From assembly GCA_963718615.1 (NCBI GenBank), contig OY970368.1, positions 4,702,524 to 4,766,523 on the forward strand: DNA of 64,000 nucleotides. Direction: 5' to 3'. The stretch comes from an uncultured cyanobacterium. Lineage in GTDB: Bacteria > Cyanobacteriota > Cyanobacteriia > PCC-9006 > JAAUQQ01. Position numbers and translations under genes: made by a program. The notes under the pieces were generated by a model that did not search any database, was not told the DNA's origin, and saw nothing but the letters and a program-made list of their open reading frames with translations. Of the stretch, positions 2,476-23,200 are shown in pieces (the stretch's first letter is position 1; every line of letters begins with the position of its first letter).

Positions 2476-2511
2476 AAAAGCCTCCGCATTTCTACGGAGG
2501 CTTTTGTTTTT
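2476..2511 (+). terminator. Rho-independent terminator after grxD
   Basis: Hairpin aaaagcctccg / cggaggctttt with loop catttcta, followed by gttttt. An A-tract upstream makes it potentially bidirectional. Confidence 0.6.
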
Positions 2512-3011: not shown

Positions 3012-3367
3012 AGCAAAACCTTAAGTTTTGTATTCATCAAAGGGTGACAAGACCAGAGGCTTCTAGCCAATGCGGCAGAAACGGTCTGGACAACGAAACC
3101 TAAACGAAGCTTAGAAGAGAAGCCGTACTCTAAAATTGTACTGTGAATCGCTCAGTTGGTGAGTGCGGTCTACCGATTCCCGAAAAAATCATCATTTGGT
3201 CATAATTTTTCGCTTGAGCGTCAAGGTCAGTTTGTAAAACATTGCGTACTTTTATTGAAAAATCTGGCGAGAATCTTTTTCTCAGACCAAGATCAAAACC
3301 TAATAACAGGATAATGCGCTGAACTTCAAGGGAAGTAGCGGCAGTTACAAACGCTTGGGCTGGCGAT

Positions 3368-4372: not shown

Positions 4373-4429
4373 CCTTTATTGCAGTCGTCTTTATTGCAGT
4401 CGCCTTTGTTTTATTCGGCGATCTATGTT

Positions 4430-5871: not shown

Positions 5872-6073
5872 ACACCTCCCGTTCTCGACCGACCCACCAT
5901 TCCCCTAATTTCATCAAATCCTGGTGGATGTCTTGCAGCGTGGCCATGTAATCCTCGGGGGTCATCTCCGAGCGCTGCTCCTGGAGCTTTTTGAGCCGCA
6001 ATTGCACCAGCAGCCAAGGCTTGCTGATGCCGTTGGTCTGATAGATATATTGTCCAAGCTGTTCGCTGTCCAT
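5855..6073 (-). CDS. Small hypothetical protein (72 aa)
   Basis: Translation from ATG 6073: MDSEQLGQYIYQTNGISKPWLLVQLRLKKLQEQRSEMTPEDYMATLQDIHQDLMKLGEWWVGREREVFGHGE. The longer 134-aa track ORF has a low-complexity N-terminal extension that is probably not translated. Confidence 0.3.
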   Translation of the reverse strand: MDSEQLGQYIYQTNGISKPWLLVQLRLKKLQEQRSEMTPEDYMATLQDIHQDLMKLGEWWVGREREVFGHGE

Positions 6074-6260
6074 GGATGGGGATGGATGGGGATGGATCCA
6101 GTTGAAGGGGATACGCAGTATTTTGCCGTACTTTTTAGGGTAACGCTTCGCGAGCGAGGGGGGAGGCATTGCGGGCTGAAATTCCGGGCAAGCGTCGATC
6201 CTGGGACCGACGGGAGAGATTATGATAAGTGAGATTTTTTCACCCACCTGAACCTTCACT

Positions 6261-6911
6261 ATGGCCTTGCAACTGCGTGTTTATGTCCCGCCTCATCCCC
6301 TGATTCGCCACTGGCTGGCGGTGGCTCGGGATGCGGTGACACCTTCACCCCTGTTCCGCACGGCCATGACGGAACTAGGACGCTGGTTGACCTACGAAGC
6401 TGCGCGAGAATGGCTACCCACCCTAGAGGCTCAGGTGCAAACGCCCCTGGCGGAAGCCCCGGCGACGCTGATTGACCCCAATGTGCCGGTGGTGGTGATT
6501 CCGATTTTGCGGGCGGGGCTGTCGCTGCTGGATGGGGCACAAACCCTTTTGCCCCTGGCGGCCATCTATCACTTGGGCATTGTCCGCAACGAAGAAACGC
6601 TGCAACCTTCGTTCTATTTAAACAAGTTGCCCGATCGCCTCGACCCTCAAGCCCGCATTTTGATTTTGGATCCGATGCTGGCTACCGGTGGGACACTCAC
6701 AGCGGCGCTGAATGAACTCGTGGCCCGTGGCGCAGATTTATCCTTAACCCGTGTGGTTTCCGTGGTGGCTGCACCCGTGGCGCTGCAAAGCTTGAGCGAA
6801 AACTATCCGGCGCTGACGATTTATACAGCAGCCATTGACGACGGGCTCAATCAAAGTGGCTTTATTGTTCCAGGGTTGGGAGATGCGGGCGATCGCACCT
6901 TTGGCACCTAA
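6261..6911 (+). CDS. upp: Uracil phosphoribosyltransferase
   Basis: UPRTase motifs ILRAGL, LDPMLATGGT and GLGDAGDRTFGT, at the expected length of 216 aa. Confidence 0.9.
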   Translation: MALQLRVYVPPHPLIRHWLAVARDAVTPSPLFRTAMTELGRWLTYEAAREWLPTLEAQVQTPLAEAPATLIDPNVPVVVIPILRAGLSLLDGAQTLLPLAAIYHLGIVRNEETLQPSFYLNKLPDRLDPQARILILDPMLATGGTLTAALNELVARGADLSLTRVVSVVAAPVALQSLSENYPALTIYTAAIDDGLNQSGFIVPGLGDAGDRTFGT

Positions 6912-7017
6912 TCCCCCGTCAACATCTCCTGTCAACATCCCCCGTCAGCGGATCGACTGAGCGACGGTCCTGCCCTGTAATAAACTTGAGAAAACCGTAC
7001 CGCAAAGGTAAAACGCC

Positions 7018-7374
7018 ATGAGTGAGCGCGACAATTTTGCTGGAGGCTTCATCGCAGGAGCTATTCTGGGCGGTATTTTGGGGGGTGTCTTGGGGGCAAC
7101 TCTGTCCTCCCGTTATGGTCGAGGGGAAGAAGAGGCGATCGCCAAATCCTCTGCCAAATCCTCTCAATCCTCCGCGAGTGGTCGCCGCCGCCGGGGGCAG
7201 TCGGGGGAGCGATCGCCCCTCTCGGTGCCTTCAGAAGCCCGGATCGAAGAAGCCCGCTCTAGCCTAGAAGACAAAATCGCCCAGCTCAATTCCGCTATTG
7301 ATGAAGCTCGGCTCCAGCTCAGCGAAACGGCGGTGCTCAATGCCACCAACCATCAGGCGGCGTCGGACGCTTAG
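7018..7374 (+). CDS. Hypothetical protein with N-terminal Gly-rich hydrophobic segment
   Basis: 118 aa: GGFIAGAILGGILGGVLGA, then a charged, helical C-terminus. No family recognised. Confidence 0.4.
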   Translation: MSERDNFAGGFIAGAILGGILGGVLGATLSSRYGRGEEEAIAKSSAKSSQSSASGRRRRGQSGERSPLSVPSEARIEEARSSLEDKIAQLNSAIDEARLQLSETAVLNATNHQAASDA

Positions 7375-7405
7375 GAGCTGGGGATTAGAGAGCTCAGGGT
7401 GGGGT

Positions 7406-8284
7406 TCAGGGCTCAGAGAGAATTGCTCCGCTGAGGTTCGCGCCGGTCAGGTCGGCGTTGGTGAGATTGGCGCGGCGTAGATTGGTGTCAATCAAAATGG
7501 TGTTGACCAGAATTGCCCCCGACAAATTCGACCAGGTGAGTCGGGCTCGGTAGAGGTTAGCTTCGGAAAAATCTACCTCCCGCAGACTAGACCAGTTGAG
7601 ATTGGCCCCTCGCAAATTCGCCCCTCGAAAGCTCGCCCGATACAGATTGGCCCCAATCAGGGTGACCTGGCTGAGGTCAGCCTCTTCAAAATTGCTTTGA
7701 ACCACACTGGCCCCGTTGAGCATGGCTCGGGTCAGACGGGCTTGCCTGAAATTGGCTTCATTAAGCTGGGCATTGGTCAGATTGGCTTCTTCTAGCGTCG
7801 TCTTGGCCAGATAGCTGTGCATCAGCTTGGCGCGGCTGAGATTGCTGCTCGTTAGGTCCGCATGGGAGAGATCCGCCTCTTGCAAATTGGCTTCGCTAAA
7901 GTTGGCCTGCTGAAGCTGACAGCCCCGGAGATTGGCCCGCAGCAGACAAGCGCCACGCAGGCTAGCATCCGTGAGCGTGGCCCCAGAAAGATTGGCGGCG
8001 GTGAGGTCCGCGCCAATGAAATTGGCCTCGGTGAGGTCGGCCCCCACGAGATTGGCTCCAGCAAGATTGGCATCCCGCAAATTAATGCCCTGAAGTTTAG
8101 CCCGGTTGAGATTGACGCCTCGCAGGTCCGCATCCCGCAGGCTAATTTCCTGGAGCTCGGCCCGCGAAAGCTGGCTACCTGAAAGGCTGGCATCTCGAAA
8201 AACTCGCTCACCCTCTGCATATTGCCGCAGCAACTCTGTTCCGTTCATGGCTGTCCTCGAAGTTATCCCCGAAAAAAAGATCAC
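7406..8284 (-). CDS. Pentapeptide-repeat protein
   Basis: Continuous A(D/N)LxxA(N/D)L pentapeptide repeats over about 250 aa. Confidence 0.85.
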
Positions 8285-8376
8285 CGAGGCACCCCCTAAT
8301 TACCCTGTTCGTTGTGAACCAAATGCTTCAGGATTCTGGGACAATCAGGTTCAGAGAGAATAAAGGATCAAGACCG

Positions 8377-10074
8377 ATGCCAGAAAACCGCAGAAGCCAA
8401 ATCATCACCCAGGGCGTGCAGCGATCGCCCAACCGCGCGATGCTCCGGGCCGTAGGGTTTGGCGATGAGGATTTTACCAAGCCCATCGTCGGGGTCGCCA
8501 GTGCCCACAGTACGATTACGCCCTGCAATATGGGGATTGCGCCCCTAGCGGAGCAGGCAGAAGCGGGAATCCGGCAGGCGGGGGGCATGCCCCAGATTTT
8601 TGGCACGATTACGATTAGTGACGGCATTTCCATGGGCACGGAGGGGATGAAATATTCCCTGGTGTCGCGGGATGTGATTGCGGATTCGATCGAGACGGCC
8701 TGCATGGGCCAGAGTATGGATGGGGTGTTGGCGATCGGCGGCTGCGATAAGAATATGCCCGGTGCGATGATTGCCATGGCGCGGATGAATATTCCGGCAG
8801 TCTTTGTCTATGGCGGAACAATTAAGCCCGGTCATCTGGATGGCCAAGACTTGACCGTGGTCAGTGCCTTTGAGGCGGTGGGCCAGTACAGCGCTGGACG
8901 GATCGAAGAGTCGATGCTCTATGCGGTTGAGCGCAATGCCTGTCCGGGGGCGGGATCCTGTGGGGGGATGTACACGGCGAATACGATGTCCTCGGCCTTT
9001 GAGGCGATGGGGATGAGCCTGATGTATTCGAGTACGATGTCGGCGATCGATGCAGAAAAAGCGAAGAATACGGCGCTGGCGGGTCAGGTTTTGGTGGAGG
9101 CGATTCGCAATCAGATTTTGCCGAGGGATATTATTACTCGCCAATCGATTGAGAATGCGGTGTCGGTGATTATGGCGGTGGGGGGATCGACGAATGCGGT
9201 GTTGCATTTTTTGGCGATCGCCCACGCTGCTCAAGTCGATTGGACTATCGACGATTTCGAGCGCATCCGCGCCAAGGTTCCGGTCCTCTGCGATCTCAAA
9301 CCCAGCGGTCGCTATGTTGCGACGGATTTGCATCAGGCGGGTGGTATTCCCCAGGTGATGAAAATGCTGCTCAACCATGGACTGCTCCACCCGGACTGTC
9401 TGACGGTGACTGGGGAGACGATTGCTGAGCGGCTGCGGGATGTGCCGGATGAACCGACGCCCTATGAGCCGATCGCCGGACATCCGGTGATTCGTCCCTG
9501 GGATAATCCGATGTATGCCCAGGGTCACTTGGCGATCCTTAAGGGCAATCTGGCCACGGAGGGAGCCGTGGCCAAAATCTCGGGGGTGAAAAACCCCGTG
9601 ATCACGGGACCGGCAAGGGTCTTTGAATCGGAGGAAGATTGCTTGGCGGCAGTCCTCGACAAGAAAATCAATCCCGGCGATGTGCTGGTGATTCGCTATG
9701 AAGGGCCGAAGGGTGGCCCCGGTATGCGAGAAATGCTAGCTCCGACTTCGGCGATTATCGGTGCGGGGCTTGGCGATTCTGTGGGGCTGATTACGGATGG
9801 TCGTTTCTCGGGTGGGACCTACGGGATGGTGGTGGGCCATGTTGCGCCGGAGGCTTTTGTGGGGGGAACGATTGGCTTGGTCCAGGAGGGGGATTCGATT
9901 ACGATCGATGCGCCCCAGCGGTTGCTTCAGCTCAATCTTTCCGAGGAGGAGTTGGCGCAGCGACGGGCGGCTTGGACTCAGCCGGAACCGCGTTATCAGC
10001 GGGGGGTATTGGCGAAGTATGCGAAGTTGGTTTCGACGAGTAGTTTGGGGGCGGTGACGGATCGGGATCTCTAG
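8377..10074 (+). CDS. ilvD: Dihydroxy-acid dehydratase
   Basis: 565 aa from ATG 8377 ([33 protein letters not shown]...CDKNMPG...). Full-length IlvD/EDD family. The track ORF begins 21 codons earlier. Confidence 0.95.
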
Positions 10075-10081
10075 GCAAGCC

Positions 10082-10104
10082 GGGACATGGCAATGCCATG
10101 TCCC
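10082..10104. terminator. Perfect palindromic hairpin 8 nt after the ilvD stop; member of a dispersed hairpin repeat
   Basis: gggacatggc-aat-gccatgtccc, a 10-bp stem with a 3-nt loop. A second copy at 55453-55475 carries a compensatory T/A to G/C change. There is no clear T-tract on the plus strand. Confidence 0.5.
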
Positions 10105-10575
10105 TACGGGATTCATGATGAACGTCAGTGATGCCCAAAAGTCTTCTAGCCATCTAGCGGACTGCGAACGCTTCGGCCTCCGCGATTGAGCACATGGGTG
10201 TAGATCATGGTTGTCTTGACATCTTTTTGACCCAGACGTAGACCGCTACTGTAGAGAATCTGAATCATTAGCCGATAAACCCCAGACAGGTTCTTAATGA
10301 TTGCGCAAGTCTCATCAGTCTTGTCTGAACGATAAGAATTAATGTTTGAGACGCAAGGCTTCTCGAACCCTGTCTAGAAGCTTCTTTGGAGGTTTTTGCA
10401 TGGTAGTGTGATAAATCGAATAATTCGGCAGATCACCCTAAATGGCATGATATTCAGAATAATTCTGATGTACTCCTGGGGATATAGGTCAAAATTCTGC
10501 ATATCACCCCTCAGGGAGGCAATATACGGAAAACTCTGCATACTAAATTGTTAGAATTTTTCATGACACTTTTTC

Positions 10576-11028
10576 ATGACACTCCCCATTGCCAACCTAA
10601 TCATCCCGACTTGGGCCCTCTACACTACCAGTGGGCTCTTTGGGTTCCCCGTGATGCTGATCTTGGTGTCAATAGCTGAATCTGCCATCCTCATCCGTCC
10701 CAACTACCCTCACCACTCAGTCCCTCGCATCTTGGCTATGGTAACCATCGCCAATGCCGCCTCCACCATGGTCGGGATCCTCATCCTCGCCATGGCAAAT
10801 CCTCAACCACCCAGATCAGGTGATGCCGTCCTCGTACAAATCATCACGGCACCGACCATTATGGCCATATGCGCAATGTGCCTTGCCTCCTTCATCATTG
10901 AGGCCCTTGTCCTCTTCCCCACCCTGCCCAAGGCACCCAAGCTAGACCTGATCGTCTACATACTCTTTGCCAATATTGTCTCATACTCGGCCTTCTACCT
11001 CATCGTCTTTTGGATCGAATTGTTTTGA
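10576..11028 (+). CDS. Hypothetical integral membrane protein (about 4 TM)
   Basis: 150 aa, strongly hydrophobic, with no recognised family. It abuts the recombinase fragment. Confidence 0.4.
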   Translation: MTLPIANLIIPTWALYTTSGLFGFPVMLILVSIAESAILIRPNYPHHSVPRILAMVTIANAASTMVGILILAMANPQPPRSGDAVLVQIITAPTIMAICAMCLASFIIEALVLFPTLPKAPKLDLIVYILFANIVSYSAFYLIVFWIELF

Positions 11029-11080
11029 GAAATTTTTCCCAATTGAATCCTCTCCTTATCCCTTCAACCCCGTATCCAAA

Positions 11081-11320
11081 TTAACGTGAAGGCTTTGCCC
11101 GAAGGGCCTGAACATTTTCAAGTGGCTGTTGAAAAATCTCACGATAGAGAAATAAAACTGCACTTTCGGTCACGCCCATGTCCTTGGGATGTCGCTTGTT
11201 GTGAAACAGAATGTAACGCCGAATCCACTGAACGTAAGTTTGCTCTGTTTTGTAGGAATAGTGATTGAGTCGTAGGGCTACACGGACTTGATCTAGAAGC
11301 TTGGGGGGCTGGGATTGCAT
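11081..11320 (-). pseudogene. Integron-type tyrosine recombinase (IntI-like) N-terminal fragment, internally deleted and truncated
   Basis: LLDQVRVALRLNHYSYKTEQTYVQWIRRYILFHNKRHPKDMGVTE aligns with IntI1 [45 protein letters not shown] (Phage_int_SAM_4-type N-terminal domain). ...FLYREIFQQPLENVQALRAKPSR then aligns with IntI1 ...[24 protein letters not shown], skipping about 22 residues. A stop follows PSR and the catalytic domain is absent in every frame. Confidence 0.7.
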
Positions 11321-11415
11321 GGGAGCCGAGGATGAAGCCTCTGGGTTCCCTGACTCGGTGGTGAAGATTTTGTAATTTTCTACGCTGACTCAAATGGGGT
11401 GATTATACTGAGACA

Positions 11416-11650
11416 TGCCTGATAATACCTGTGTAGGGATGTTATCCGGCAGCGGTGCCGGGATAACGCCTAGAAATGGGTTGTTATCACGCACCTTCGC
11501 CTGATAATACCCAACCAGGGATGTTATCCAGCATGATTGCCTGGATAACTGGCTAAGACTGGGGATTATACGGCGTTGGCGCTTGAGAATACCCGGAGGA
11601 GGGAGTTATCAGGCATCGTGCATGAGAATAAGTTGTTATGCCGCTGAGTT
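11416..11650. repeat. Array of structured direct and inverted repeats next to the recombinase 5' end (att-like region)
   Basis: An approximately 85-bp unit occurs twice: gcctgataatacc-N7-gggatgttatcc-N12-ggataac(g/t). Further diverged copies occur once inverted (gagttatcaggc) and once as gttgttat(c/g)(a/c)cgc. The motif TATCAGG/CCTGATA recurs at 14265-14300. Confidence 0.5.
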
Positions 11651-11819
11651 TCTGGTGGAGACATAGCCGCAATATTGCTTACTGGTGTCCGATATCAAGT
11701 TGCTTTGAGACAACGCAAATCGAGAGTTGCCTTAAAAGTAGAAAGCTCAAAAACCTTCTACATTGTCTATGCCGTTGAGTTATGTTATTACCAAGCAATT
11801 CATAAGTAATTAAAGAGAC

Positions 11820-12154
11820 ATGACAACCCTGCTTGTTCTTGGCAATATTAATCAGTTTACATTTGCAAACTCTGTAATCGCAGCTAACGCCAAGGCTGAG
11901 GAAATATTTGAGCAGGGTCTAACAAATATATTTGTTGTGCATTCAAGAGACTCCTATACCAAGCTAAAGAGTAATGAAGATTGGGTAGATCATGCAGAGG
12001 CAAATGGTGTAAGCCGAGAATTATTTGTTGATAAAATTGTTGAGATCACAGCAGAAGATGACTCAATTAAAAGATTCGTTGATTATATTGAGGGTAGTGC
12101 CTTTAGCTGGGGGATGAGTATGGTGTGGCCATTAGAGAAAGAAAAAGCAAACTG
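11820..12154 (+). pseudogene. 5' fragment of an AT-rich gene interrupted by the IS1-family element
   Basis: The ORF MTTLLVLGNINQF...SAFSWGMSMVWPLEKEKANW runs into the IS left inverted repeat. The tail after that is IS-derived sequence. It has the same strand and AT-rich composition as the ORF downstream of the IS. Confidence 0.4.
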
Positions 12155-12180
12155 GGTAAGACCCTTCTGTGCCAATTGCG

Positions 12181-12492
12181 ATGACTCAAGAGCTGCTTCA
12201 TTGTCCTAACTGTCTATCTGAAGATATCAGCCGTAACGGCTTCAACGATCGCGGTACTCAAAGCTATAAATGTCGAGATTGCCATCGCCGGTTTGTCCTG
12301 ACTCCGAAATCCCTTCCCTTGAGCGATGAAGAGATAGCCTTGCTCGAACGTTTATTGCTTGAAAGGCTAGCCATCGCTGGAATTGCTCGGGTGATGCAGC
12401 GCTCCGAGAGCTGCATTCAGACCTACGTCAACGCCAAAGCTAAAACCGTTGCTCGGGAGGTGGAAGTGACGAAGAAAGTAAAAAAGCTCTGA
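12181..12492 (+). CDS. insA: IS1-family transposase InsA (zinc-finger/HTH)
   Basis: MTQELLHCPNCLSEDISRNGFNDRGTQSYKCRDCHRRFVLTP... with a C4 zinc finger. Confidence 0.75.
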   Translation: MTQELLHCPNCLSEDISRNGFNDRGTQSYKCRDCHRRFVLTPKSLPLSDEEIALLERLLLERLAIAGIARVMQRSESCIQTYVNAKAKTVAREVEVTKKVKKL

Positions 12493-12500
12493 CGGTCCAG

Positions 12501-12941
12501 ATGGACGAACTCTGGTCGTTCGTGGACCATAAAGGAAATAAACAGTGGGTTTGGATTGCTCTAGATGCGGACACTCGCGAAATCATTGGCCTTTATATCG
12601 GGGACCGAAGTGCTAAATCTGCCGAAGCTTTATGGCGGTCTCTACCGGGAGTGTACCGCCAATGTGCAGTCATCTACACCGATTATTGGGAGAGCTATGC
12701 CTGTGTGCTTCCTAGCCAACGCCACCGAGCGGTTGGGAAAGAAAGCGGGCTGACGAGCTACATCGAGAGGTTCAACTGCACCCTGCGGCAAAGGGTGTCG
12801 CGCTTGGTCCGAAAGGCGCTCTCGTTTTCAAAGAAACAAGAGAACCACGAGGCTGCGATCTGGAATTTCGTTCACCATTACAACCAGCAATTGCGCCTTA
12901 AGCAGGCTCATACCGCTTCATTCTCTCCAGCACCCACATAA
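12501..12941 (+). CDS. insB: IS1-family transposase InsB (catalytic domain; normally made as an InsAB frameshift fusion)
   Basis: MDELWSFVDHKGNKQWVWIALDADTREIIGLYIGDRS... with the DELWSFV motif diagnostic of IS1 InsB. The frame is -1 relative to insA. Confidence 0.8.
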   Translation: MDELWSFVDHKGNKQWVWIALDADTREIIGLYIGDRSAKSAEALWRSLPGVYRQCAVIYTDYWESYACVLPSQRHRAVGKESGLTSYIERFNCTLRQRVSRLVRKALSFSKKQENHEAAIWNFVHHYNQQLRLKQAHTASFSPAPT

Positions 12942-13098
12942 TTGGACTACCTATATTGAGTTTATTTTAAAAGGTATCCCAAATGGATCAAGACTTATCG
13001 TTGATATTACAAATGGGACTTCATTACAAAAAAATCTACTCTCAATAGCTTCTTATATCCTTGACATAAAAAATCAATACACGATCGATGTTTCCAAG

Positions 13099-14145
13099 TT
13101 GTTTGAACTAACTAAAGAAAGAGGCTTTCTGCCAACTGATATTTTGCTATCCTGCTATGCCCCAGTTCCTGATAGCACTAGACTTGATGGCATCGCCTAT
13201 CTAAATCTGTCAGAAATGGTACGCTACAGGAAAATTATAGAATCTCATACTAACAAGTATGTAGCCATAGATCCAAGTTCCTCTGATAGAGAGTTTTTCA
13301 AGGATAACTTGGGTCATTCTATTCAGTTAAAGTTACAAGGAGATCAAAGCAAAGATAACGCTATATATCGCATAGCGGCTTCATCAATTTCGGCAAGCGT
13401 GGAGGATCTAATTCGTCTTCTGGTGAGCAAATTTATCCTAGCTGATACTCCTGATGGAGTAGATCGCAAAACTTTTGGGCAAAAACTCAAAATTATTCAA
13501 GCCAAAATTGAGAAAGATGCGCCGTCTGACTTTGATATAGAGTTTTTTAGCAAGTTCAATGATTTCATTTTGTACTTGAGAAATAGTTCCACACATAAAG
13601 GTAAGCTTTTAACTGACTTGGAGAAGTTCAAGGCAGAGCTTTCTGTCAAAATGGCTTTTCCCTTTATTGAATTTTATACAGATATCGTGCATCCTTTGCT
13701 ATCAAGTGGTGAGCTTTCTAGAGAGCCAAAGCATATGAAAAAATTAACGTATGCTGATATAGCACCAGGAGACACCTTGTATTATGGGTTGGACGGAGAT
13801 GATACAGGAAAGATATTAGAAGAACTTTTTCTTGCCTGTAGCGATGAATCTAGCTTTCGGAAATTGAGCAAAGATGTAGCAAATGCGATTTCAAAAATTT
13901 CTAGATTTGTTACTGATAAGCTTGGTAAGAATGCAATTGTATTTGAGGCGGGTGACGATCTTTTGTTCAAGGGAAATTTTCAAGAAGATATGCTTTTGGA
14001 AATGCAAGCTATGTATTCACAATTAACACCTGGGCTAACGTGTTCAATTGGTTATGGGCGATCATTTCAAGAGGTATATTTAGCATTAAAACTCGCAAAG
14101 ACCCAGCCAGGTAAAAATGCTATTGTTGGAATTGAGCTTTGCTGA
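13099..14145 (+). CDS. Predicted HEPN-like (Rx4H) domain fused to minimal GGDEF/Cas10-like palm cyclase (mCpol-like); N-terminus truncated by IS1
   Basis: The C-terminal 150 aa carry YYGLDGDDTG (acidic metal-binding strand), FEAGDDLLF (aligns with GGDEF RYGGEEFVV and GGDD of Cas10) and LTCSIGYG (SxG strand). The N-terminal helical part has LRNSSTHKG (R-x4-H). The track start is a TTG; the frame is open for a further 147 nt back to the IS end at 12952 with no ATG. The region is AT-rich. Confidence 0.5.
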   Translation: MFELTKERGFLPTDILLSCYAPVPDSTRLDGIAYLNLSEMVRYRKIIESHTNKYVAIDPSSSDREFFKDNLGHSIQLKLQGDQSKDNAIYRIAASSISASVEDLIRLLVSKFILADTPDGVDRKTFGQKLKIIQAKIEKDAPSDFDIEFFSKFNDFILYLRNSSTHKGKLLTDLEKFKAELSVKMAFPFIEFYTDIVHPLLSSGELSREPKHMKKLTYADIAPGDTLYYGLDGDDTGKILEELFLACSDESSFRKLSKDVANAISKISRFVTDKLGKNAIVFEAGDDLLFKGNFQEDMLLEMQAMYSQLTPGLTCSIGYGRSFQEVYLALKLAKTQPGKNAIVGIELC

Positions 14146-14389
14146 GCTTGTCGCAGCATAACATAGGCCCTGAGCCGGACGGGGTCAATAGAGAAGATAA
14201 AAAATAACTCTGATGTAATGTCTGAGCGAATTGAAGCCAGCGCAAACCACCTGATAGTCAGTTTTGAGTATCAGCCGAACTGAGCTATCAGAGCCATCTT
14301 CGTATTTTTCGTATTCGATTGGTTCAAAACCTAAAGCAGTTCAATCGAGCAACAAAATAGAGACCTAAGCCGGTAAAAGAGCGACCAAA

Positions 14390-14790
14390 GGAGAGTTTTT
14401 GCGCCGGAGAGCAGCGAGATACTTTTCCTCATCATAAGGAGTCCTATCCTGCCAACACCGCCAAAGAATCCGACCCCCTTTATACGCCAAAGCACGAATA
14501 GCCTTTTGATGGGATTTACCCGCCAGTCGTTTTTGTTGATAAAATGCCTGTGACCAGACCGAGCGAGACCGAGCATGGGTGACCCACTCGACAAAAGTTT
14601 GCCTCAGAAAGATAGGACAAGACCAACGCCAATGGACCCAACGTTGCTTGCCAATTTCCTCCGCCTGAGGGGTGGCCTGAATAGTGGATTGTGCCCAGGT
14701 CTCATTCTGGCAATCGTAGAGAGCAATATCATGTTTGCGGTCTGTCCAATCAATGCCGATATAGGCAGCATAAACGGTTGTGAAGAGATT
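14390..14790 (-). pseudogene. IS110-family (DEDD) transposase relic
   Basis: Minus-strand translation gives YIGIDWTDRKHDIALYDCQNETWAQ...FYQQKRLAGKSHQKAIRALAYKGGRILWRCWQDRTPYDEEKYLAALRR. This joins an IS110 N-terminal IGIDxxK motif to a C-terminal Transposase_20-like tail. The middle is missing and there is no start codon. Confidence 0.45.
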
Positions 14791-15430
14791 AGGTCAAAGG
14801 TCTTTCCCTGCTCCCTGAGGATTCGTTAGGCAGCGAGCGGATGGGCTGGACGGGCGATTCGATTGGTTAGTAGTCATCTTCTGACTGGCGCTGCATAGTC
14901 GTCCCGACAATCTGGCAGATGCTCTCCTTTCTTGACTTTATGCGCTTCTGTCAAATTCGCGCATGGGAGAGGGATGAGCGATTCGGTATGTTCGTAGACA
15001 TCCTCTGTGTCGTCCAATGCATAGTCGTCTCTTCCTGGTTCTTCTTCCCCGTCCCCCATAAAGTCGATGAAGCGGACGGTTGGAAGATTTATTTTTGCGG
15101 GGATGCTGAGGTTGCCTGCCGCCGCTTGTCTTGGTCGTTAGACCGACAAAGCAAGATAGAGAAACAAGCAAGAGAATTTGAGTTTTCCGGTGTTGGAGAC
15201 AGTCTTGTGGCAGAATCAGCAGAACGCAATCAAGAAACTTCACCGACAAACTTGCAACGATCGCTGAATCAGAAACATGAAAAAGCCTTAGGGGACAAGC
15301 TGTATCAGACAGAAAGAAATAGATTCTTGTCAGTTCGTTCCCTGACCTTCTCACACTGCGCGTGTTTCCGCCCATCAGCATAGTTAATTAGGGTAAAATG
15401 AGAGGGCTGAGTTGAAATGAGGTCAAGCCT

Positions 15431-15703
15431 ATGACAGTTCGCCAACGACGGTATAGCAAGGAAGAGTTAGCCCGACGCGGACAAGAACTCTATGAGTCTG
15501 GAATTCGGCAGCAGGTTGAAGCCGGTAACGATGGAAAAATTGTGGCGATCGACATTGAAACCGGAGAGTTTGAGGTTGATGAAACGGTCATGGGTGCGAC
15601 CGATCGGCTATTTGAACGCCTGCCTGATGCTCAACCTTGGACGCTGCGAATCGGACACAGCGCCGTCTATCATTTTGGAGCGAGGAGTCTGAAGAAAGAT
15701 TAA
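15431..15703 (+). CDS. Small conserved protein, upstream partner of a retropepsin-like protease
   Basis: 90 aa (...GKIVAIDIETGEFEVDETVMGATDRLFERLP...). Its stop overlaps the next start as TAATG. Confidence 0.5.
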   Translation: MTVRQRRYSKEELARRGQELYESGIRQQVEAGNDGKIVAIDIETGEFEVDETVMGATDRLFERLPDAQPWTLRIGHSAVYHFGARSLKKD

Positions 15704-16071
15704 TGATTCGTGGAGTGGTTAATTTTCGCTATGAACTCATGCTTCCCCTTGTAGTCGGGAACTCGAATGGACAACGAGAGTTCGTCAATACCGTAATCGA
15801 TACTGGATTTGATGGGTTCTTGTCCTTGCCCTCTGAAATAATTGCTCGTCTTGAATTGCCTTGGAGGACTTCCAATATCGCGACCTTGGGAGATGGTAGC
15901 AAAACCCTGTTTGACTTTTACACCGGAACCGTCATCTGGGATGGTCAATATCGCTCGATCGACATTGCTGAATCAGAGACGGAACCCCTGCTAGGACTGG
16001 CAATACTTCGCGGATATCGATTGCAGGTCGATAATGTTGAGGGAGGTATCGTCGAGATTGATGCACTGTGA
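15703..16071 (+). CDS. Retropepsin-like (clan AA) aspartic protease
   Basis: MIRGVVNFRYELMLPLVVGNSNGQREFVNTVIDTGFDGFLSLP... with the D-T-G catalytic motif and retropepsin size. The start is at the ATG of TAATG; the track ORF starts at an out-of-context upstream Met. Confidence 0.65.
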   Translation: MIRGVVNFRYELMLPLVVGNSNGQREFVNTVIDTGFDGFLSLPSEIIARLELPWRTSNIATLGDGSKTLFDFYTGTVIWDGQYRSIDIAESETEPLLGLAILRGYRLQVDNVEGGIVEIDAL

Positions 16072-16273
16072 TTGTGTGCGAGAGTGATCGGTGAGGCGCG
16101 GTCTAACAATGCGATGGAGCGGCGAATAAAGTTTTTTCGCTTCGTTTCGGTTCTACTTGTCGCTGCTCATCTTCACCGTTGTGCCGCTGGTTTAAGGTGT
16201 TACTGTTTCTGAAGATTGATCGGTCACCTGCGAGAATTAATTACACATCGTTAGCTATATTGAAAGCACTTTT

Positions 16274-16816
16274 ATGTTAAAAGCTGGAAGGCTTACGACT
16301 TGGAAGGATGATCGTGGTTTTGGGTTTATCGAACCTGAAGATGGCAGCAAAGCCGTCTTCCTTCACGTCAGCGAAGTCAAGAATTTGAGTCGTCGTCCGC
16401 AGACTGGTGACACAGTTTTTTACGAGCCACGGGTTGAGAACAATGGGAAAGTGCGTGCAACTAAGGTCTCGATTCAAGGCGTTGCACCTCGAAGCATTAC
16501 ACCTCGAAATCAGCCTGTAGGTGGTCGGTTTCAACAGCGAATTGTCGAAACTGCCATCGCACTTGCCTTACTAATAGCGATTGTGGCTGTGGGCAGCCGA
16601 TTTGTGCCAAGCCGCTCTCCATCTCCTATAGCCGCAGTGACCAAGCCGAACTGCCAGATTAAAGGAAATATTTCGGTTTCATCGGGCAACAAGATTTATC
16701 ACCTGCCAGGGATGGAAGACTATGCATCGACTGTAATTGATGAAGGCGCTGGAGAGCAGTGGTTTTGTTCTGAGTCAGAGGCGATCGCGGCAGGGTGGAA
16801 GAAGGCTCCTCGCTAG
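16274..16816 (+). CDS. Cold-shock-domain protein with TM segment and conserved Cys-containing C-terminal domain
   Basis: N-terminus WKDDRGFGFIEPEDGSKAVFLHVSEV (CSD-like), a hydrophobic helix AIALALLIAIVAVG, and C-terminus CQIKGNISVSSGNKIYHLPGMEDYASTVIDEGAGEQWFCSESEAIAAGWKKA. Confidence 0.55.
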   Translation: MLKAGRLTTWKDDRGFGFIEPEDGSKAVFLHVSEVKNLSRRPQTGDTVFYEPRVENNGKVRATKVSIQGVAPRSITPRNQPVGGRFQQRIVETAIALALLIAIVAVGSRFVPSRSPSPIAAVTKPNCQIKGNISVSSGNKIYHLPGMEDYASTVIDEGAGEQWFCSESEAIAAGWKKAPR

Positions 16817-16925
16817 TTTCCGCAGCACAACAACGTTGTACCGTTGTACCGCTTCGTTTTAGGTTGTGGCGGTAAGCTAAAAATTACCGGGTTTCTCAAA
16901 TTCGTATTGACACTGTACATACGTC

Positions 16926-17240
16926 TTGTTTAGAATTATAGGCATGGACGTTTATTGTGTGCTGAATGGCATTACATTTATCTGGAATCCAGAAAAGGCC
17001 CGGATTAATCCAGTCAATCATGATGGGATTACCTTTCAGCAAGCGGCTGAGGCATTTTTTGATCCATTCCTGATTCTGGTTGATGCCAGTCGCAACGATG
17101 AAGCAAGAGATGCCGTGATTGGCCTGGATACACGCTATAACTTGCTTTATGTCGTGCATATTGAGCAAGAGGGTGATTGTATTCGGATTATTTCTGCGCG
17201 TAAAGCAACCCGACAAGAGAGGATGAACTATGAAAGTTGA
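16926..17240 (+). CDS. brnT: BrnT-family ribonuclease toxin (DUF497)
   Basis: ITFIWNPEKARINPVNHDGITFQQAAEAFFDPF...RIISARKATRQER matches the BrnT pattern FxWDxxKAxxNxxKHGVxFxEA...RIISARKA. The start may be the internal Met at 16944. Confidence 0.7.
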   Translation: MFRIIGMDVYCVLNGITFIWNPEKARINPVNHDGITFQQAAEAFFDPFLILVDASRNDEARDAVIGLDTRYNLLYVVHIEQEGDCIRIISARKATRQERMNYES

Positions 17241-17523
17241 AGCCTTAAAGAAAAGATTGGATAAGAATCGACCTATGAGCAGCGTAACGATTCGGATGCC
17301 GGAAGATGTCGTGGAAGACTTGAAGCGAGTTGCGCCATTGTTAGGCTTTTCTGGATATCAGCCATTGATTCGGGCTTACATCGGCCAGGGATTACGTGCT
17401 GACTTGGAGCGATTTGAAGGTGAGATGGTGAGTGCGTTGATTGCCAGCTTGAAGCGACGGGGTGTGAGCGATACCGTAATTGATGAAGCGTTGAGAGAGG
17501 TTGTGCCAGCGGTAGCCAGTTAA
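17230..17523 (+). CDS. brnA: BrnA-family antitoxin
   Basis: 97 aa (MKVEALKKRLDKNRPMSSVTIRMPEDVVEDLKRVAPLLGFSGYQPLIRAYI...). It overlaps brnT by 11 nt and has the BrnA-type CopG-like fold signature. Confidence 0.7.
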   Translation: MKVEALKKRLDKNRPMSSVTIRMPEDVVEDLKRVAPLLGFSGYQPLIRAYIGQGLRADLERFEGEMVSALIASLKRRGVSDTVIDEALREVVPAVAS

Positions 17524-17749
17524 TCTGTGTTTACCAGCAGTACAACAACTTGGATGCAGCGGACTCGCAGGATTGATCACTAATGGACGTAGCGTAGCTT
17601 CGAGCCGCTGATCAAAAACGTTAGTGTTCAAAATCACGAAGCAACAACGCAAGTTTGAGCTTGTGCATGAGATTTAGATTTCACTACAATTTCCACATCT
17701 CGCCCCAAAGCATTGAGAAAGCGAAAGAATCGTGCGGTCGAAAAACCTG

Positions 17750-18001
17750 CTAGTGTTCCTTGGTTCGTTTCAGTCTTGCTTCGATCAGGTCAATATCCTG
17801 CCTAGGCGTAGCAATCCCTTGCTTTGATTTTTTCTGGAAAGCATGTAAGACGTAGACCCCTCCAGCCAGTTTTACCGTGTAGACGGCTCGATATCCCTTC
17901 CGGCTCAGGCCAGTGGAAAAGGCATGTTGCCTCGGTGTTCCCAGCTTTAACAGGTTGCTGATACGAGTCCTTGGTCTCCGCAACTGTTTCCAGTAACACA
18001 T
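17750..18001 (-). CDS. RelE/ParE-superfamily toxin (HigB/Gp49-like), apparently orphan
   Basis: ...GYRAVYTVKLAGGVYVLHAFQKKSKQGIATPRQDIDLIEARLKR matches the conserved C-terminal core of Gp49/HigB-like toxins. No HTH antitoxin ORF lies downstream; only a 15-codon remnant, MHKLKLALLLRDFEH. Confidence 0.6.
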   Translation of the reverse strand: MCYWKQLRRPRTRISNLLKLGTPRQHAFSTGLSRKGYRAVYTVKLAGGVYVLHAFQKKSKQGIATPRQDIDLIEARLKRTKEH

Positions 18002-18229: not shown

Positions 18230-20209
18230 ATGAATAAAATGCTTAGGACTCTCAGTCTTACGGGGTTGGTTTCGACGCCTAATTCTTCGACGGTTGCTGA
18301 CGCAAGTTTGGCTGAAGCGTTTGCGCCGCCGCAAACCCTGTTGGAAGCTCAGTCGCTCTGTAGCCTGATCCTCACCCCCGAGAGCCGTGAACTGCTTTTG
18401 GAGGCGCTCCGTCAAGCGGATCGTCTGCCCCGCCCCGGAGAAAAAGCTCAAGCATTAATTGATTTGGCTTGGACGTACAAGCGTTTTGAGATTCCTTCTG
18501 CTCGGCTTTTGCTGATCCGTGCTGAATTCCTGGGTCAGTCAGCTCCTGTACCAGAAAGGATTGTGTTGCTACAACAGTTGATAGAAGCCTATCACTGTTT
18601 TGATGAGACAGAGACCGAGGCGCAGCGGCTGATCGAGATGGCATTACCGCTGGTTCGCACCCTAGGAGATCGCCCCTCCGCCACAGATAACGCCATCTCT
18701 GGGATCGCCATGACCTATGCACAGGCAGGTGAAATGGATTGGGCTGAGGCGATCGCCCGCGAAATTCGCGATCCCGAGATTCGCCTCACGGCCACCCGTC
18801 TGCTTGCTGAAGCAACAGAATCTGAGTTTGAGTCCGACATCTCTCTTTCTGTAGACCACCACCCAACCGCTTGGAATGCCTCCTTAACCTGGATCAGTCC
18901 TGAAGAGGCTGACACCAAAGGGTTAATCGAACAAATCGAAGCGTTGGATGAGCGACTGGGCCAAGGGGAGACCCTAACCGCAGCGGAGATCAGTCCTCTG
19001 GTTCAAGCGTTGACCGCCCTGCCTGCTTCGATGGTGCAATATCTCTACGGCCAGGAGTTGGCAGTGCGACTGGCTCAAGCCCAGCTCTTTGAACTGGCTC
19101 AGCAGGTGATCCAATCCATCCCCGTGCCTGCGGAAGTGGAACCCTTGTGGGGAGCCGCAGAACAATATTCACAACCGTTTGCCCTGGCAAAACTTGCCGG
19201 ACGCTTAGCCTTAGAAGGTCATCTTGCCCAGGCCCTGCAACTGGTTGATACCCTACCCGACACCAACGCTAACAAGCGGGCGGAACAGGCGATCACCCGT
19301 ACGGCGATCGCCAATACCCTCTTGATTCAAAACGATCTTGAATCTGCCCAAATCTGTTTGGCGGAAGCGGTTCAGCTAGCCCAGGATCTGCCCGCGACCC
19401 TGGATCAAGCCTGGGTTTTGATGTCCATTGCCACGACCTATCGGCTAAAAGGGGACCAGGAATTGGGGCAGGAATTTATAGCTCGGGCGATCGCCCTCAA
19501 TCCCAATTTAGCCGTCTATGGGGAAACCTTTGAAGCAGGAGCAGCCATGCTTCAACCTACCCAGAGCCGTCCGCTAGAGATTGATGCCATTGCGGAATTT
19601 TGGCAAGCGGTGGATCAAGGGGCTGTAGACCGGGCAGCCCATCTTCTCGACATCCTGGACGATGCCGATGAGCAGATGGACCTGCTGCCAGTGCTTGCAG
19701 CGATCCAAGAACAAGCCGGTCAAATACTACAAGCCAGGGACGCCCTCCAGCAAGCCCTACAACTCGCCCAAGCAGAACGGTATCAACGCTCTGAAACCTT
19801 TGAACAGGACTCTGAATCAGCGGTATTTGCAGAACAAATTACCCAGATTCGCTATAACTTTATGAGCAGTGGCGGCAGTTTGTCTGTCCTCCAATGGGTC
19901 TTGCAACATAGTTTGAAGGACCAGGCTGATGCAGGGCTTCGCCAACAGCTTTGGGAAGAGGCGATCGCCACCCACTTGTATCGAGTAATCTACAGTGAGG
20001 CCGCAACGGTTGAGGAGTTACAAACGCTCATTCCATTTCTGGATCAGCTTTCAATTTCAACTCAACAAACCGAACTAACCCTGGGCCTGATTTCAGCCTT
20101 CACAAAACAAGAAGATCCTGCCACCGCCAGACAACTGACTGACCGATTGTCGCCCAGTCATCAAGTTAAAGCCCTCGCCGAAATGGCACAGGTCTATGGC
20201 AGAAATTAG
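18230..20209 (+). CDS. Hypothetical alpha-helical repeat (TPR/HEAT-like) protein
   Basis: 659 aa, rich in Ala/Leu/Gln/Glu with repeated helical hairpin-like segments. No catalytic motif seen. Confidence 0.45.
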   Translation: MNKMLRTLSLTGLVSTPNSSTVADASLAEAFAPPQTLLEAQSLCSLILTPESRELLLEALRQADRLPRPGEKAQALIDLAWTYKRFEIPSARLLLIRAEFLGQSAPVPERIVLLQQLIEAYHCFDETETEAQRLIEMALPLVRTLGDRPSATDNAISGIAMTYAQAGEMDWAEAIAREIRDPEIRLTATRLLAEATESEFESDISLSVDHHPTAWNASLTWISPEEADTKGLIEQIEALDERLGQGETLTAAEISPLVQALTALPASMVQYLYGQELAVRLAQAQLFELAQQVIQSIPVPAEVEPLWGAAEQYSQPFALAKLAGRLALEGHLAQALQLVDTLPDTNANKRAEQAITRTAIANTLLIQNDLESAQICLAEAVQLAQDLPATLDQAWVLMSIATTYRLKGDQELGQEFIARAIALNPNLAVYGETFEAGAAMLQPTQSRPLEIDAIAEFWQAVDQGAVDRAAHLLDILDDADEQMDLLPVLAAIQEQAGQILQARDALQQALQLAQAERYQRSETFEQDSESAVFAEQITQIRYNFMSSGGSLSVLQWVLQHSLKDQADAGLRQQLWEEAIATHLYRVIYSEAATVEELQTLIPFLDQLSISTQQTELTLGLISAFTKQEDPATARQLTDRLSPSHQVKALAEMAQVYGRN

Positions 20210-20225: not shown

Positions 20226-23200
20226 TTAGAGGGTAAAATGATTGGCATGAATCGTAAAGGCATTGACATTTAGCAGTATCGCAACTTGCTGCAAGCTGCC
20301 GCCCACCTCTGCCTGAATAATCGTATTTAATCCCAATTGTTGAGCCTGAATTATTGTTCCAAAAGTGGAATTGCCATGATAGATCGCATTGAGATCTAGG
20401 CGATCGAAGAGAATTTCAAAATCCAAAATCGTATCGCCATAGTCTTGTGTTGATTCGTAGAGGAAGCGATCGCTTCCCTGTCCACCCATCAAGATATCGC
20501 TACCCAATCCCCCAACTAATAAATCATCACCATTGCCTGCCTGCAGAATGTCATTACCACTGCCACCGTAGAGACTATCATTGCCGCTGTTGCCATTTAA
20601 AATATCATTGTCATTGCCGCCATCAATCCAGTCATCACCACTGCCCCCCGTAATCAGATCTTTGCCATCTTCCCCTAGAATGCGATCGTTTCCACTCCCC
20701 CCGTTAACCACATCATCTCCGGCTCCAGCCCGAATTTGATCAACTCCGCTTCCCCCATTGTTAATATCATCGCCATTGCCCCCAGCAATTTCGTCTGCTT
20801 CACTTCCTCCATTGATAATGTCGTTGCCATGACCACCATCAAGCAAATCGTTATCGCTCAGGCCACTGAGTATATCATTGCCCTCGGTTCCCGTAATGAC
20901 ATCAGCACCACCGCCTGTGGGGCCGGAAGGAGGTTGGGGAGGATTGGGCTCAATTTGAATCGTGACCGTTGCAATTTTGCCGTTCACCCAATAGGTCAGC
21001 GTATCGGTCCCTATGAAATTCGAATTAGGGATGTATTCAAGCTGATTATTTTGATTGATTGAAACGCTGCCATGGGTCGGCGCGAGTTGAATTGAAAGGG
21101 GGCCTTCTAAGGGATCATTGGCCAGAACATCAATGATTGTTTTGGGAGAATTGGCCTTAAGCTTTGCAGTGTCGTCTTGGGGAAAAGCATCGACTGTCAA
21201 AGTGCTAATAGCCGTATTACTATTAGCTGTTCCGTCATTGAGCTTTAGGGTAAAGATGCGATCGCCTAAGGTTGGTTTTGAGGCAGTGTTACTGTAGGTA
21301 AGCGATCGCAAGAGTTCATCTACATCGGCTTGTGATAAATCACCACCACCACTTTTGGTAATCGTGATCGTTGAGCCACTATCGATCATCGAAACAGAAA
21401 AGCTGGTAGAGCGATTGGGAACCGTTACGCTTTGACTACTGTTTGTATTCAGGGGCAACTCAAGGTTGCCAATCTTGAGGATTTCATGAGGACCATTTGC
21501 CAGGCCAGAGACCGCTATTGTGATGGTTTCAATATCATCGCCGCTGGGATCTGAGCCGGTCGCTCGAAGCGGGTCAGCGATCGTTGCCGCCGCTCCCCCC
21601 GCAACGAAGGTGCTGCTGTAGTCAACGCCAGACTGACCCTCGTTGCCATTTCCATTGAGGTCAAGGATAGGTGGCTCGTTGGCATCGGGAATGCCGTTGC
21701 CATTGCCATCCTTTTGAAACGTGACAGTGAAAGTTTTGATGCCGGATGATTTTGTATCAGTTTCTTGAGGGCTATTAAAGAGCTGATCTCCATCTAAATC
21801 TGTTTGATCCAGACTTATACCCTCTAGTTCTAAACTCAATAAACCGACAAATTCTGGAGGAGGAACCAGGATTAAGCCTGCCAAGTCTTCGGGGGTAAAG
21901 ATCCAAGTATTACTGCCTTGCTTACTGCCAATTGATGTTGAATCCTTGGTAAAGGTAAAGCCATCCGGCACATTGCGAATTGTATAGATTAGGGTTTCTG
22001 AACCATCTGTATCCGCAGGGGTACTGCCCGTGAGCGATAGGGCAATCGGCTGGTTTTGAATGCCTGTTGCGCTGATTGCTGTCACGCTGGGTATTTCGGC
22101 GATGGGTAGCACTGTGACTGTGACCGTAGCAGGCTTACCGTTAACGCTATAGGTGAGACTATCTACGCCACTAAAGTGAGGATTAGGTTGATATTCAATC
22201 TCGTTATTATTGTTGACGAGAGCCGTGCCTTGGGAAGGTTCGGATTGGATAGAAACAGAGCCATTGAGTGGATCGTTAACTAATACATTGATGACGGTAC
22301 TGCTTGCATTTTCTTGAACGGTAATCGTATCGTCTTGGGGAAACGCATCGACGGTGATGGTGCTAACAGCGAGGTTACTGTCGGCTGTTCCGTCGTTGAG
22401 TTTGATTAAAAATGTGCGATCGCCCAAGGTTGGCGTAGATGCCGTATTTTTATAGGAGAGCGATCGCAGAACCGCTTCAACTTCGGATTGGCTCAGATCG
22501 CCACTGCCATCTTTGGTTATTGTAACTTTCGTTCCATTGTCTGTAATCGCAATAGAAAAAGTTGTCCCGCTATTTGGTAGTACAAAACTTTGACTGGTGT
22601 CAGCATTGAGTGGAAACTCAAGATTAGCAATCTCGAAAACTTCATTGGCTCCATCGGTAAGGTTGGTGATGGCGATCGTAATTTTTTCAATATCGGGTTC
22701 GTTAAAATCGCTGCCTGTTGCGTTCGTTGGACTGGCGATCGCAATAGCGCTGCCGCCCGCAGTAAAGGTTGTAGAATACCCATCTCCAGAATTAGCTGAG
22801 CCATTTAAATCTAGAACTGGCGCAACGTTATCAACTCCATTAATCGTAATGGTAACGGTCGCATCATCGGTGCCACCTCTGCCATCGGATACGGTATAAA
22901 TAAAGCTATCTTTTGCGGTTTGACCACTGGTCAAACCATTAAACTTGCCATTGGGATCATAACTATAAGAACCATTCGCATTGACCGTGAGCAACGCTCC
23001 TGATGACAACGTTATTTGCTGGCCAACTGCCGTAATCTGACCATTGACGGCTGCAACCGTGAGGGGATCTCCGTCAGGATCAAAGTCGTTCGCTAAAATG
23101 CCTGCGGCATTGACATTGAGCACAACATTTTCATTGGTAAGGCCCGTATCTCCGCCCGTCGTGATTAAATTGGTAAAGTTAAATTGTCGATTGCCATCAA

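Follow-up and report, generated by a model that had tools for sequence, protein, structure and literature searches.

A probable decayed chromosomal integron with two integrase remnants beside ilvD in an uncultured cyanobacterium

What kind of element occupies the approximately 8 kb of hypothetical, insertion sequence (IS), and toxin-antitoxin (TA) genes located downstream of ilvD in an uncultured cyanobacterium (GenBank assembly GCA_963718615.1, contig OY970368.1)? The window analyzed here is a stretch of 64,000 nucleotides of this contig (positions 4,702,524 to 4,766,523 of the forward strand), and the region in question lies at positions 10105-18001 of it. A sequence-only reading had described this region as a decayed integron-like accessory island, atypical or eroded since no canonical attC sites were recognized. 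In integrons, the integrase IntI recombines the folded strand of the attC hairpin of a cassette with the attI site located beside intI; promoterless cassettes hence stack in one orientation, opposite to that of intI. Our analysis indicates that the region is very probably a decayed chromosomal integron convergent with ilvD, consisting of a cluster of attC sites lacking an integron integrase (CALIN) and of two intI pseudogenes. The core of the sequence-only reading therefore holds, since attC sites, attI homology, and matches to integron integrases were all detected, providing stronger evidence than that reading had assumed.

Integrase remnants and attC sites

The region comprises two tandem platforms (10146-10556 and 11081-11641), each made of an intI pseudogene and an attI-type region. 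Platform 1 is followed by one cassette-like open reading frame (ORF) and platform 2 by about five cassettes, encoding, in this order, a CARF-HEPN-mCpol protein, no ORF (a short unit), a 90-aa protein together with an aspartic protease, a cold-shock domain (CSD)-sunset protein, and BrnTA. The plus strand carries all attC sites together with seven of the eight cassette genes, and the minus strand carries both intI remnants. The proposal that the cassettes are carried by the strand opposite to the recombinase was thus borne out, all ORFs of the array being on the plus strand except remnants of an IS110-family transposase gene and of a higB-like gene.

Both integrases are ruined by internal deletions. 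In intI pseudogene 1 (10146..10402, minus strand), two such deletions have fused residues ~1-20, ~100-145, and ~300 to the end. This pseudogene retains the catalytic-Tyr motif MIYTHV, and its best match is the integron integrase model TIGR02249 (E = 7.7e-15, profile positions 286-313 of 315). intI pseudogene 2 (11081..11320, minus strand), which also contains an internal deletion, encodes only the N-terminal SAM-like domain (PF13495, E = 8e-15), ends with ...RAKPSR, and has TIGR02249 as its best match. For both remnants, the integron integrase models TIGR02249 and NF011946 were ahead of the Xer models, with scores (52-55 bits) that are far below the cut-offs (at least 265) because both are fragments. 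The IntI-specific extra domain is present in P0122 and P0232, two full-length proteins of the same N-domain family. The sequence-only reading had reported a single recombinase fragment, which is real and of the integron-integrase type; there are two remnants, not one. Residues ~1-20 and ~100-110 occur in both remnants, indicating that two gene copies are present and leading us to reject a single intI split by an insertion. We also rejected a stand-alone family of integrases consisting only of the N domain: end points vary, the genes of relatives display internal deletions or frameshifts with catalytic fragments downstream, and the N-domain profile also retrieves full-length integrases and integrases with tandem N domains. 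An exact look-up of the 79-aa intI stub returned no record. Many integron-integrase relatives (P0122-P0144) contain two tandem N-terminal SAM-like domains, among them P0122, a full-length protein of 459 aa in which both a catalytic domain and the IntI extra domain are present. These tandem-N-domain integrases probably represent the clade of elongated IntI proteins noted by Nemergut et al. 2008.

Homologues of intI remnant 2 identified six loci, in Leptolyngbya sp. NK1-12 (L081), in Phormidesmis priestleyi Ana (L082), in Elainella (L090 and L091), and at L086 and L089. Each of them contains a truncated intI and, diverging from it on the opposite strand, a series of small genes, which include PIN/HicB, DUF433/DUF5615, BrnT, HigB/HTH, and acetyltransferase genes. 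The spacers of five of the six loci (L081, L082, L086, L090, and L091) hold textbook attC sites, with R'' boxes such as GTCTAAC and GCCCAAC and R' boxes such as GTTAGAC, GTTAGGC, and GTTGGGC. Eleven canonical attC sites of these related cyanobacterial arrays were used to build a covariance model, R1. In its consensus hairpin of 18 pairs, compensatory changes occur at 12 pairs, and one unpaired G is invariant.

Run unfiltered on the window, R1 identified three significant sites, all on the plus strand, each directly following the stop codon of a plus-strand ORF or operon. The highest-scoring site (16098-16186; 59.1 bits, E = 8.2e-12) has a perfect R'' box (GTCTAAC), the R' box GTTGTGC, paired L arms, and the unpaired G. 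The site at 17537-17628 (44.7 bits, E = 2.1e-8; R'' GTACAAC, R' GTTAGTG) is the last significant attC of the array, and the site at 15053-15145 (32.6 bits, E = 1.5e-5), which ends the ORF-less unit, combines a degenerate R'' box with the R' box GTTAGAC. Two remnants complete the set, both on the plus strand. The first (16822-16851; 16.7 bits, E = 0.09) is internally deleted, with a CACAAC R''-like box, a GTTGTAC R'-like box, and the middle lost; this match is weak, and its support comes mainly from its position directly 3' of the CSD stop codon. The second (14156-14189, CCCTGAGCCGGACGGGG) is an orphan attC 5' half, with an R''-like box (GCATAAC) and an L'' arm, read by eye against the R1 consensus; it sits directly past the mCpol stop codon and does not by itself give a significant R1 match. 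Besides these sites, the best R1 match in the 64 kb had an E value of 0.26. No match at E ≤ 1 was obtained with R1 in any of 45 control ilvD loci (~0.9 Mb), and in integron loci the model recovered three sites outside its training set. In a 17-site alignment that included the window sites, 92.7% of the pair cells were standard, 12 of the 18 pairs showed compensatory changes, and none of 500 shuffles reached the observed covariation; sliding the 3' partners by 1 to 3 columns reduced pairing to 55% or less. The sequence-only reading, which had suggested running an attC covariance model, was therefore mistaken in its own negative: the model places three plus-strand sites in the island, to which the two remnants are added. 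Nor is the element atypical in this respect, since its attC sites belong to the same family as those of related cyanobacterial integrons.

Could these hairpins be terminators or REP-like (repetitive extragenic palindromic) repeats scattered in a generic island, assembled by IS elements and a phage- or Xer-type tyrosine recombinase? In favor of such an island, there are two IS elements, neither recombinase fragment is long enough to reach a family cut-off, and several of the intergenic hairpins could be terminators. However, the hairpins match a structure and sequence model of the integron attC sites of other genomes, have AAC...GTT boxes and the unpaired G, and occur on one strand, after cassette ORFs, and in this region only. 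The recombinase fragments score higher on integron-integrase than on Xer models, and the island has neither a tRNA nor a flanking direct repeat. A generic island is therefore already largely refuted and, in our view, extremely improbable. An integrative island targeting a tRNA, or an integrative and conjugative element, was likewise rejected, since the scan of the 64 kb for tRNA and tmRNA genes detected none, no flanking direct repeat was above chance in the window, and the recombinase is of the integron type and broken. The lack of a tRNA in the 64 kb indicates that the island is not tRNA-linked.

attI-type regions and possible use of the platforms in trans

attI-type region 1 (10403..10556, plus strand) is composed of inverted-repeat units of ~40 nt and ends with ...CTAAATT-GTTAGAA, the R box being at 10550-10556. 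Its single-strand fold was not significant in comparison to shuffled sequences (z = -1.4). attI-type region 2 (11392..11641, plus strand) is composed of three 82-nt units and ends with ...GAATAAGTT-GTTATGC, the R box being at 11635-11641. Each unit forms two hairpins, GATTATAC...GATAATAC and GTTATCC...GGATAAC. The repeat array already seen in the sequence-only reading was thus confirmed, with 82-nt units at 11392-11650 and a DNA-fold z-score of -5.2. These hairpins were considered as miniature attC sites and rejected because the GTT and AAC boxes are the wrong way round relative to the loop.

Both attI-type regions align with the sequences located between intI and the first cassette in L082, L086, and L081, and with the corresponding region of L092, an ilvD-linked locus described below. 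The shared architecture consists of ~40-nt units (TTAKRCGGAAA...GYCTAW) and of a terminal TAA-N-T-GTT box. According to these alignments, a multi-hairpin attI-type architecture, with 3 to 6 units of ~40 nt, is shared across genera. The platforms of L090, L091, and L081 are identical over 235 nt up to ...TCTATTAATAGTT (ending with AATAGTT) and unrelated beyond. Identity stopping at GTT in these three loci is as expected for attI crossover at G/TT. By homology, the crossover boxes of the window would be GTTAGAA (10550-10556) and GTTATGC (11635-11641).

The attI1 site of class 1 integrons contains four IntI1 binding sites (DR1, DR2, L, and R). As in attI1, repeated elements resembling integrase boxes precede a terminal GTT crossover box beside the start of intI. 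Unlike attI1, the regions of the window and its relatives contain 3 to 6 units of ~40 nt, each of them an inverted repeat able to form a hairpin, and there is neither sequence similarity to attI1 nor a transposon context. This departure of the 3- to 6-unit hairpin arrays from a textbook attI, together with the fold of region 1, which is no better than that of shuffled sequences, is what could be expected if the arrays were unrelated repeats, such as miniature transposable elements or regulatory iterons, present upstream of the intI remnants by chance. However, the same units and the same terminal TAA-N-T-GTT box occupy the same place with respect to the start of intI in six loci belonging to different genera, and sequence identity in the relatives stops exactly at GTT, making a chance association very unlikely.

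For the decayed integron, the array would have been built by IntI-mediated recombination between attI and attC, as in all integrons; without an integrase supplied in trans from another locus, it would now be frozen. The persistence of the attI regions and of the 5' part of intI may be due to expression signals that they carry, a suggestion to be set beside the promoter scan, which revealed no promoter above chance. Promoter and terminator scans showed no enrichment in comparison to shuffled sequence. A conserved motif located at the attI start in the window and in L082 (GATTATACTGAG) contains TATACT, which resembles a -10 box and may hint at a putative cassette promoter (Pc).

Several observations weigh against a decayed integron. 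The training set of R1 is small and lineage specific (11 sites), its E values are only roughly calibrated, and two of the attC R boxes depart from the strict RYYYAAC/GTTRRRY consensus. A complete attC is missing both for the cassette of platform 1 and for the first cassette of array 2. The segment encoding the IntI-specific extra domain is deleted in both integrase remnants, whose matches are far under the family cut-offs. The putative attI function is assigned by homology and position, and a consensus scan of the platform regions for Pc gave nothing above chance.

Alternatively, the platform may still be in service: a full-length integrase from another locus of the 6.1-Mb genome would act in trans, and cassettes would be gained, lost, and shuffled. 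This situation has a parallel in Elainella, in which two loci (L090 and L091, positions 7765-8318 of each; GCA_015272495) have an identical internally deleted intI and the 235-nt attI, followed by different cassettes past GTT. The same deletion allele is present in Leptolyngbya sp. NK1-12 (L081:5765-6360) with other cassettes. The association of identical dead intI genes with different cassettes suggests that the cassette content has changed after integrase inactivation, and dead platforms with differing cassettes hint at the activity of a trans-acting integrase. In the window, three attC sites retain pairing, and the use of attC clusters in trans has been discussed by Cury et al. (PMC4889954). 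However, no intact intI was found within the 64-kb window, and the array of the window decays rather than turns over, with one attC deleted and another reduced to a half, IS insertions, and higB truncated. Duplication followed by homologous exchange could also account for the Elainella pattern. We regard continued use in trans as doubtful.

Cassette genes and insertion sequences

The decayed-integron interpretation delineates attI, attC, and cassette boundaries within what would otherwise be ~8 kb of "hypothetical, IS, and TA" genes, and a lineage-specific attC model recovered sites that had been overlooked in a reading based on consensus motifs. The gene inventory of the sequence-only reading was essentially right, since the protease pair, the CSD protein, and BrnTA (with a weak BrnA match) were all found, as were both IS elements and the split HEPN/mCpol gene.

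The cassette-like ORF that follows platform 1 (10576..11028, plus strand) encodes a 150-aa hydrophobic or membrane protein that matches no family; R1 detected no attC after this ORF. This ORF directly adjoins intI remnant 2 at its truncated 3' end, and a deletion probably removed both the rest of array 1 and the catalytic part of the second intI.

The first cassette gene of array 2 (11820..14145, plus strand) encodes a CARF-HEPN-mCpol protein, a candidate antiphage effector, and is disrupted by an IS1-family element (12093..12951, plus strand). This element contains insA (12169-12492) and insB (12501-12941), which match NF033558 (E = 9e-16 and 2.9e-32, respectively), has terminal inverted repeats starting with GGTAGT, and is flanked by a perfect 9-bp target duplication (TATATTGAG, at 12084-12092 and 12952-12960). 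In silico removal of the IS and of one duplicate generated a 485-aa ORF that matches the PADLOC model CARF_HEPN_mCpol (PDLC01967) end to end (residues 1-485 against positions 1-471 of 471, E = 5e-219), the mCpol domain being PF18182. The restoration of an intact ORF by this excision indicates that the IS1 insertion is recent. The presence of a CARF-HEPN-mCpol gene as a cassette is in line with recent work that regards integrons as reservoirs of phage-defense genes; such genes have been reported as integron cassettes (bioRxiv 10.1101/2024.07.02.601719).

The second IS, downstream of the orphan half attC, is an IS110-family transposase remnant with an internal deletion (14365..14793, minus strand; NF033542 positions 282-343 of 343, E = 5.8e-7, below the curated cut-off). 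An R'-like GTTAGGC box is found past this remnant, at 14824-14830. IS1111/IS110 elements targeting attC sites have been documented (PMC11187229), and the IS110 element of the window may similarly have targeted an attC. An IS110-family element (L091:1934-4561) is also located directly beside an attC (L091:4545-4635) in an Elainella array, which parallels the IS110 remnant and half attC of the window. A 154-aa ORF (14919-15383) was not retained as a gene and is probably spurious because its reading frame crosses the attC site at 15053-15145.

The next cassette (15431..16071, plus strand) contains two genes, encoding the 90-aa protein (15431-15703) and a clan-AA aspartic protease-like protein (15703-16071), which matches TIGR03698 with 53.5 bits against a cut-off of 57.35. 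It is followed by a gene (16274..16816, plus strand) encoding a protein with a CSD (PF00313), a transmembrane segment, and a sunset domain (NF051437), for which the PADLOC CSD_V match was weak. The BrnT/BrnA TA cassette (16944..17523, plus strand) has a BrnT match of 75.9 bits (PF04365) and a weak BrnA match. A near-consensus sigma-70-type promoter is located upstream of the BrnT gene, at 16907-16936 (TTGACA, 18 nt, TAGAAT; 11 of 12 matches), which fits TA cassettes having their own promoter. Such cassettes would probably stabilize or retain the array.

Past the last significant attC lies an inverted, decayed HigB(Gp49)/HigA-like remnant (17680..17896, minus strand). The Gp49/HigB match of the toxin previously described as an orphan HigB-like protein is genuine; the gene is a 5'-truncated pseudogene, since only the C-terminal 40 of 90 profile positions are present (PF05973 positions 51-90) and the N-terminal half of the toxin is lost. 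The HigA part of this remnant is putative. The segment at 17895-17911 is the second-best plus-strand complement of the half attC in the 64 kb, and we tentatively propose that 17895-17932 (plus strand) is an attC 3' half pairing with 14156-14189, the chimera folding at -21.2 kcal/mol. If real, this pairing would place the right end of the array near 17932. The link is unproven because an equally good complement, the best one, occurs by chance at ~30950, inside a coding region. The complement at 17895 lies 3.7 kb downstream of the half attC, exactly where the Gp49/HigB homology ends.

Genomic setting and comparison with known integrons

The left flank of the island is the housekeeping gene ilvD (dihydroxy-acid dehydratase; 8377..10074, plus strand), the 3' side of which contains a perfect terminator-like hairpin read from the sequence (GGGACATGGCAATGCCATGTCCC, 10082-10104). 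The host has the affinity of a filamentous, Leptolyngbya-like cyanobacterium: no other recorded protein exceeds 89% identity to its IlvD, the best named relatives being Thermoleptolyngbya, Alkalinema, and Phormidesmis. The GC content drops directly past ilvD, from 0.558 (1-10074) to 0.459 (10105-18001). The heterogeneous composition and AT-rich stretches noted by the sequence-only reading were recovered, with GC contents of 0.39-0.43 at 10200-10600 and of 0.35-0.42 at 11600-12200 and 13000-14300. On the left, the island starts abruptly between 10105 and 10146.

The right border of the integron is at about 17630-17930, and accessory DNA runs farther. Position 18001, proposed as the right limit, is not the end of the accessory DNA because the next gene encodes a TPR-like protein that has no homologue except itself and is followed by a gene encoding an RTX/cadherin protein with a GC content of 0.459. 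The former gene (18230-20209, plus strand; 659 aa, GC 0.537) lies outside the integron, and its product retrieved only itself at E ≤ 1e-10 among 5.8 billion clustered proteins. The latter (20226-24362, minus strand) encodes a giant protein of 1378 aa with DUF4347, cadherin/Big_9 repeats, and RTX nonapeptide repeats, as assigned by domain matches, and is probably additional accessory DNA, distinct from the integron. Core-like genes, including that for NdhS, and the core composition return near 24.8 kb.

The island genes are absent from all of the 83 other ilvD loci examined (L001-L080 and L092-L094), and integrase fragments were found in none of 80 other ilvD loci. The region is thus accessory, as judged from its GC drop, its IS elements, and the absence of its genes beside ilvD in other genomes. 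L004, the closest of the relatives in which upstream synteny is conserved, has in common with the window the 10 kb located upstream of ilvD, and its downstream genes are unrelated. The sequence-only reading had called for a comparison of synteny in related strains and would have been contradicted by conserved core synteny between ilvD and the downstream flank; this is not what we found, because L004 keeps the upstream 10 kb yet differs downstream of ilvD. The closest IlvD relatives (89% and 87% identity) have neighborhoods that differ on both sides of ilvD. Synteny therefore failed to fix the right border, as L004 diverges after ilvD, the closest IlvD relatives differ on both sides, and the TPR gene is an orphan. 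The Rfam scan of the window at gathering thresholds yielded no family reaching the threshold, and a metagenome scan with the 3' end of ilvD yielded no match.

An integron remnant was observed immediately 3' of ilvD at L092:7990-9470, in a Logan contig (SRR27957352) whose IlvD is 89% identical to that of the window. It comprises an attC (8187-8278, minus strand; 64.5 bits, E = 2e-13), one cassette gene (8248-9222, minus strand; 324 aa), and an attI-type end (...TATATTAAGTT-GTTAGG) near 9330. This remnant is inverted with respect to the window and has no intI, and the remaining flanking genes are unrelated to those of the window. It indicates that linkage to ilvD is either ancestral in a small lineage or recurrent.

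Elements of this type are already known, since cyanobacterial integrons, intI pseudogenes (~1/3 of chromosomal intI genes), and integrase-less attC clusters are documented (PMC2426708, PMC4889954). The closest analogue is provided by the chromosomal integrons of Xanthomonas, which are linked to ilvD and mostly inactivated (Gillings et al. 2005; bioRxiv 10.1101/2025.06.18.660453). As in Xanthomonas, intI is directly downstream of ilvD, and the arrays are short to medium in length, carry nonresistance cassettes, and are frozen after inactivation, a likeness drawn from published descriptions. The two differ in the phylum of the host and in the presence of two tandem intI/attI platforms in the window. 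Unlike Xanthomonas, the nearest relative of the window has its ilvD-linked remnant inverted and without intI. The wider interest of the locus lies in this ilvD linkage, common with Xanthomonas, and in the identical dead platforms of its relatives, which carry different cassettes. One may speculate that, in the Leptolyngbya-like group, the intI stub and multi-hairpin attI form a landing pad served in trans, with exchange continuing at dead platforms, and that integrons have repeatedly settled downstream of ilvD in two unrelated phyla, represented by the window lineage with its nearest relative and by Xanthomonas. We consider this combined proposal unlikely.

CALIN elements are defined in IntegronFinder as at least two attC sites within 4 kb and no functional intI nearby (PMC4889954). 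The element resembles this class in having three significant attC sites within 2.6 kb with only intI pseudogenes nearby, cassettes mostly of unknown or nonresistance function, and associated IS elements. Unlike the usual CALIN, it retains recognizable intI pseudogenes and attI regions; intI pseudogenes were near only 15 of 279 CALIN elements (Cury et al., PMC4889954). With two tandem platforms, deletion-type intI pseudogenes, and IS insertions, it offers a clear case of integron decay in cyanobacteria. Sedentary chromosomal integrons are those present in all genomes of a species or containing >19 attC sites (Cury et al. 2016), and the element, with its 3 to 5 attC sites, is under the latter number; the other assemblies recovered were all of the same strain. 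Like the superintegron of Vibrio cholerae, the element is chromosomal, contains TA cassettes with their own promoters and defense-type cassettes, and has attC sites that resemble each other and those of related genomes. Unlike that superintegron, it has about 5 cassettes rather than tens to hundreds, and its integrase is dead.

Three further observations concern the surroundings of the element and of its relatives. In Logan short-read assemblies of the same strain, contigs break ~147 nt past ilvD (10221) and resume near 15007, indicating that the intI/attI/IS segment is repeated in the genome or unresolved from the rest of it. Upstream of ilvD, a divergent pentapeptide-repeat gene (7406-8284) is paired with ilvD in many cyanobacterial loci (L007, L010, L018, L021-L023, and L025), in contrast to the downstream side of ilvD, which is not conserved. 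Finally, the array side of L089 (4733-6811) contains a long heptamer tandem-repeat tract (CCAGTGA/CCAGTTA) and ~1 kb of apparently structured noncoding sequence.

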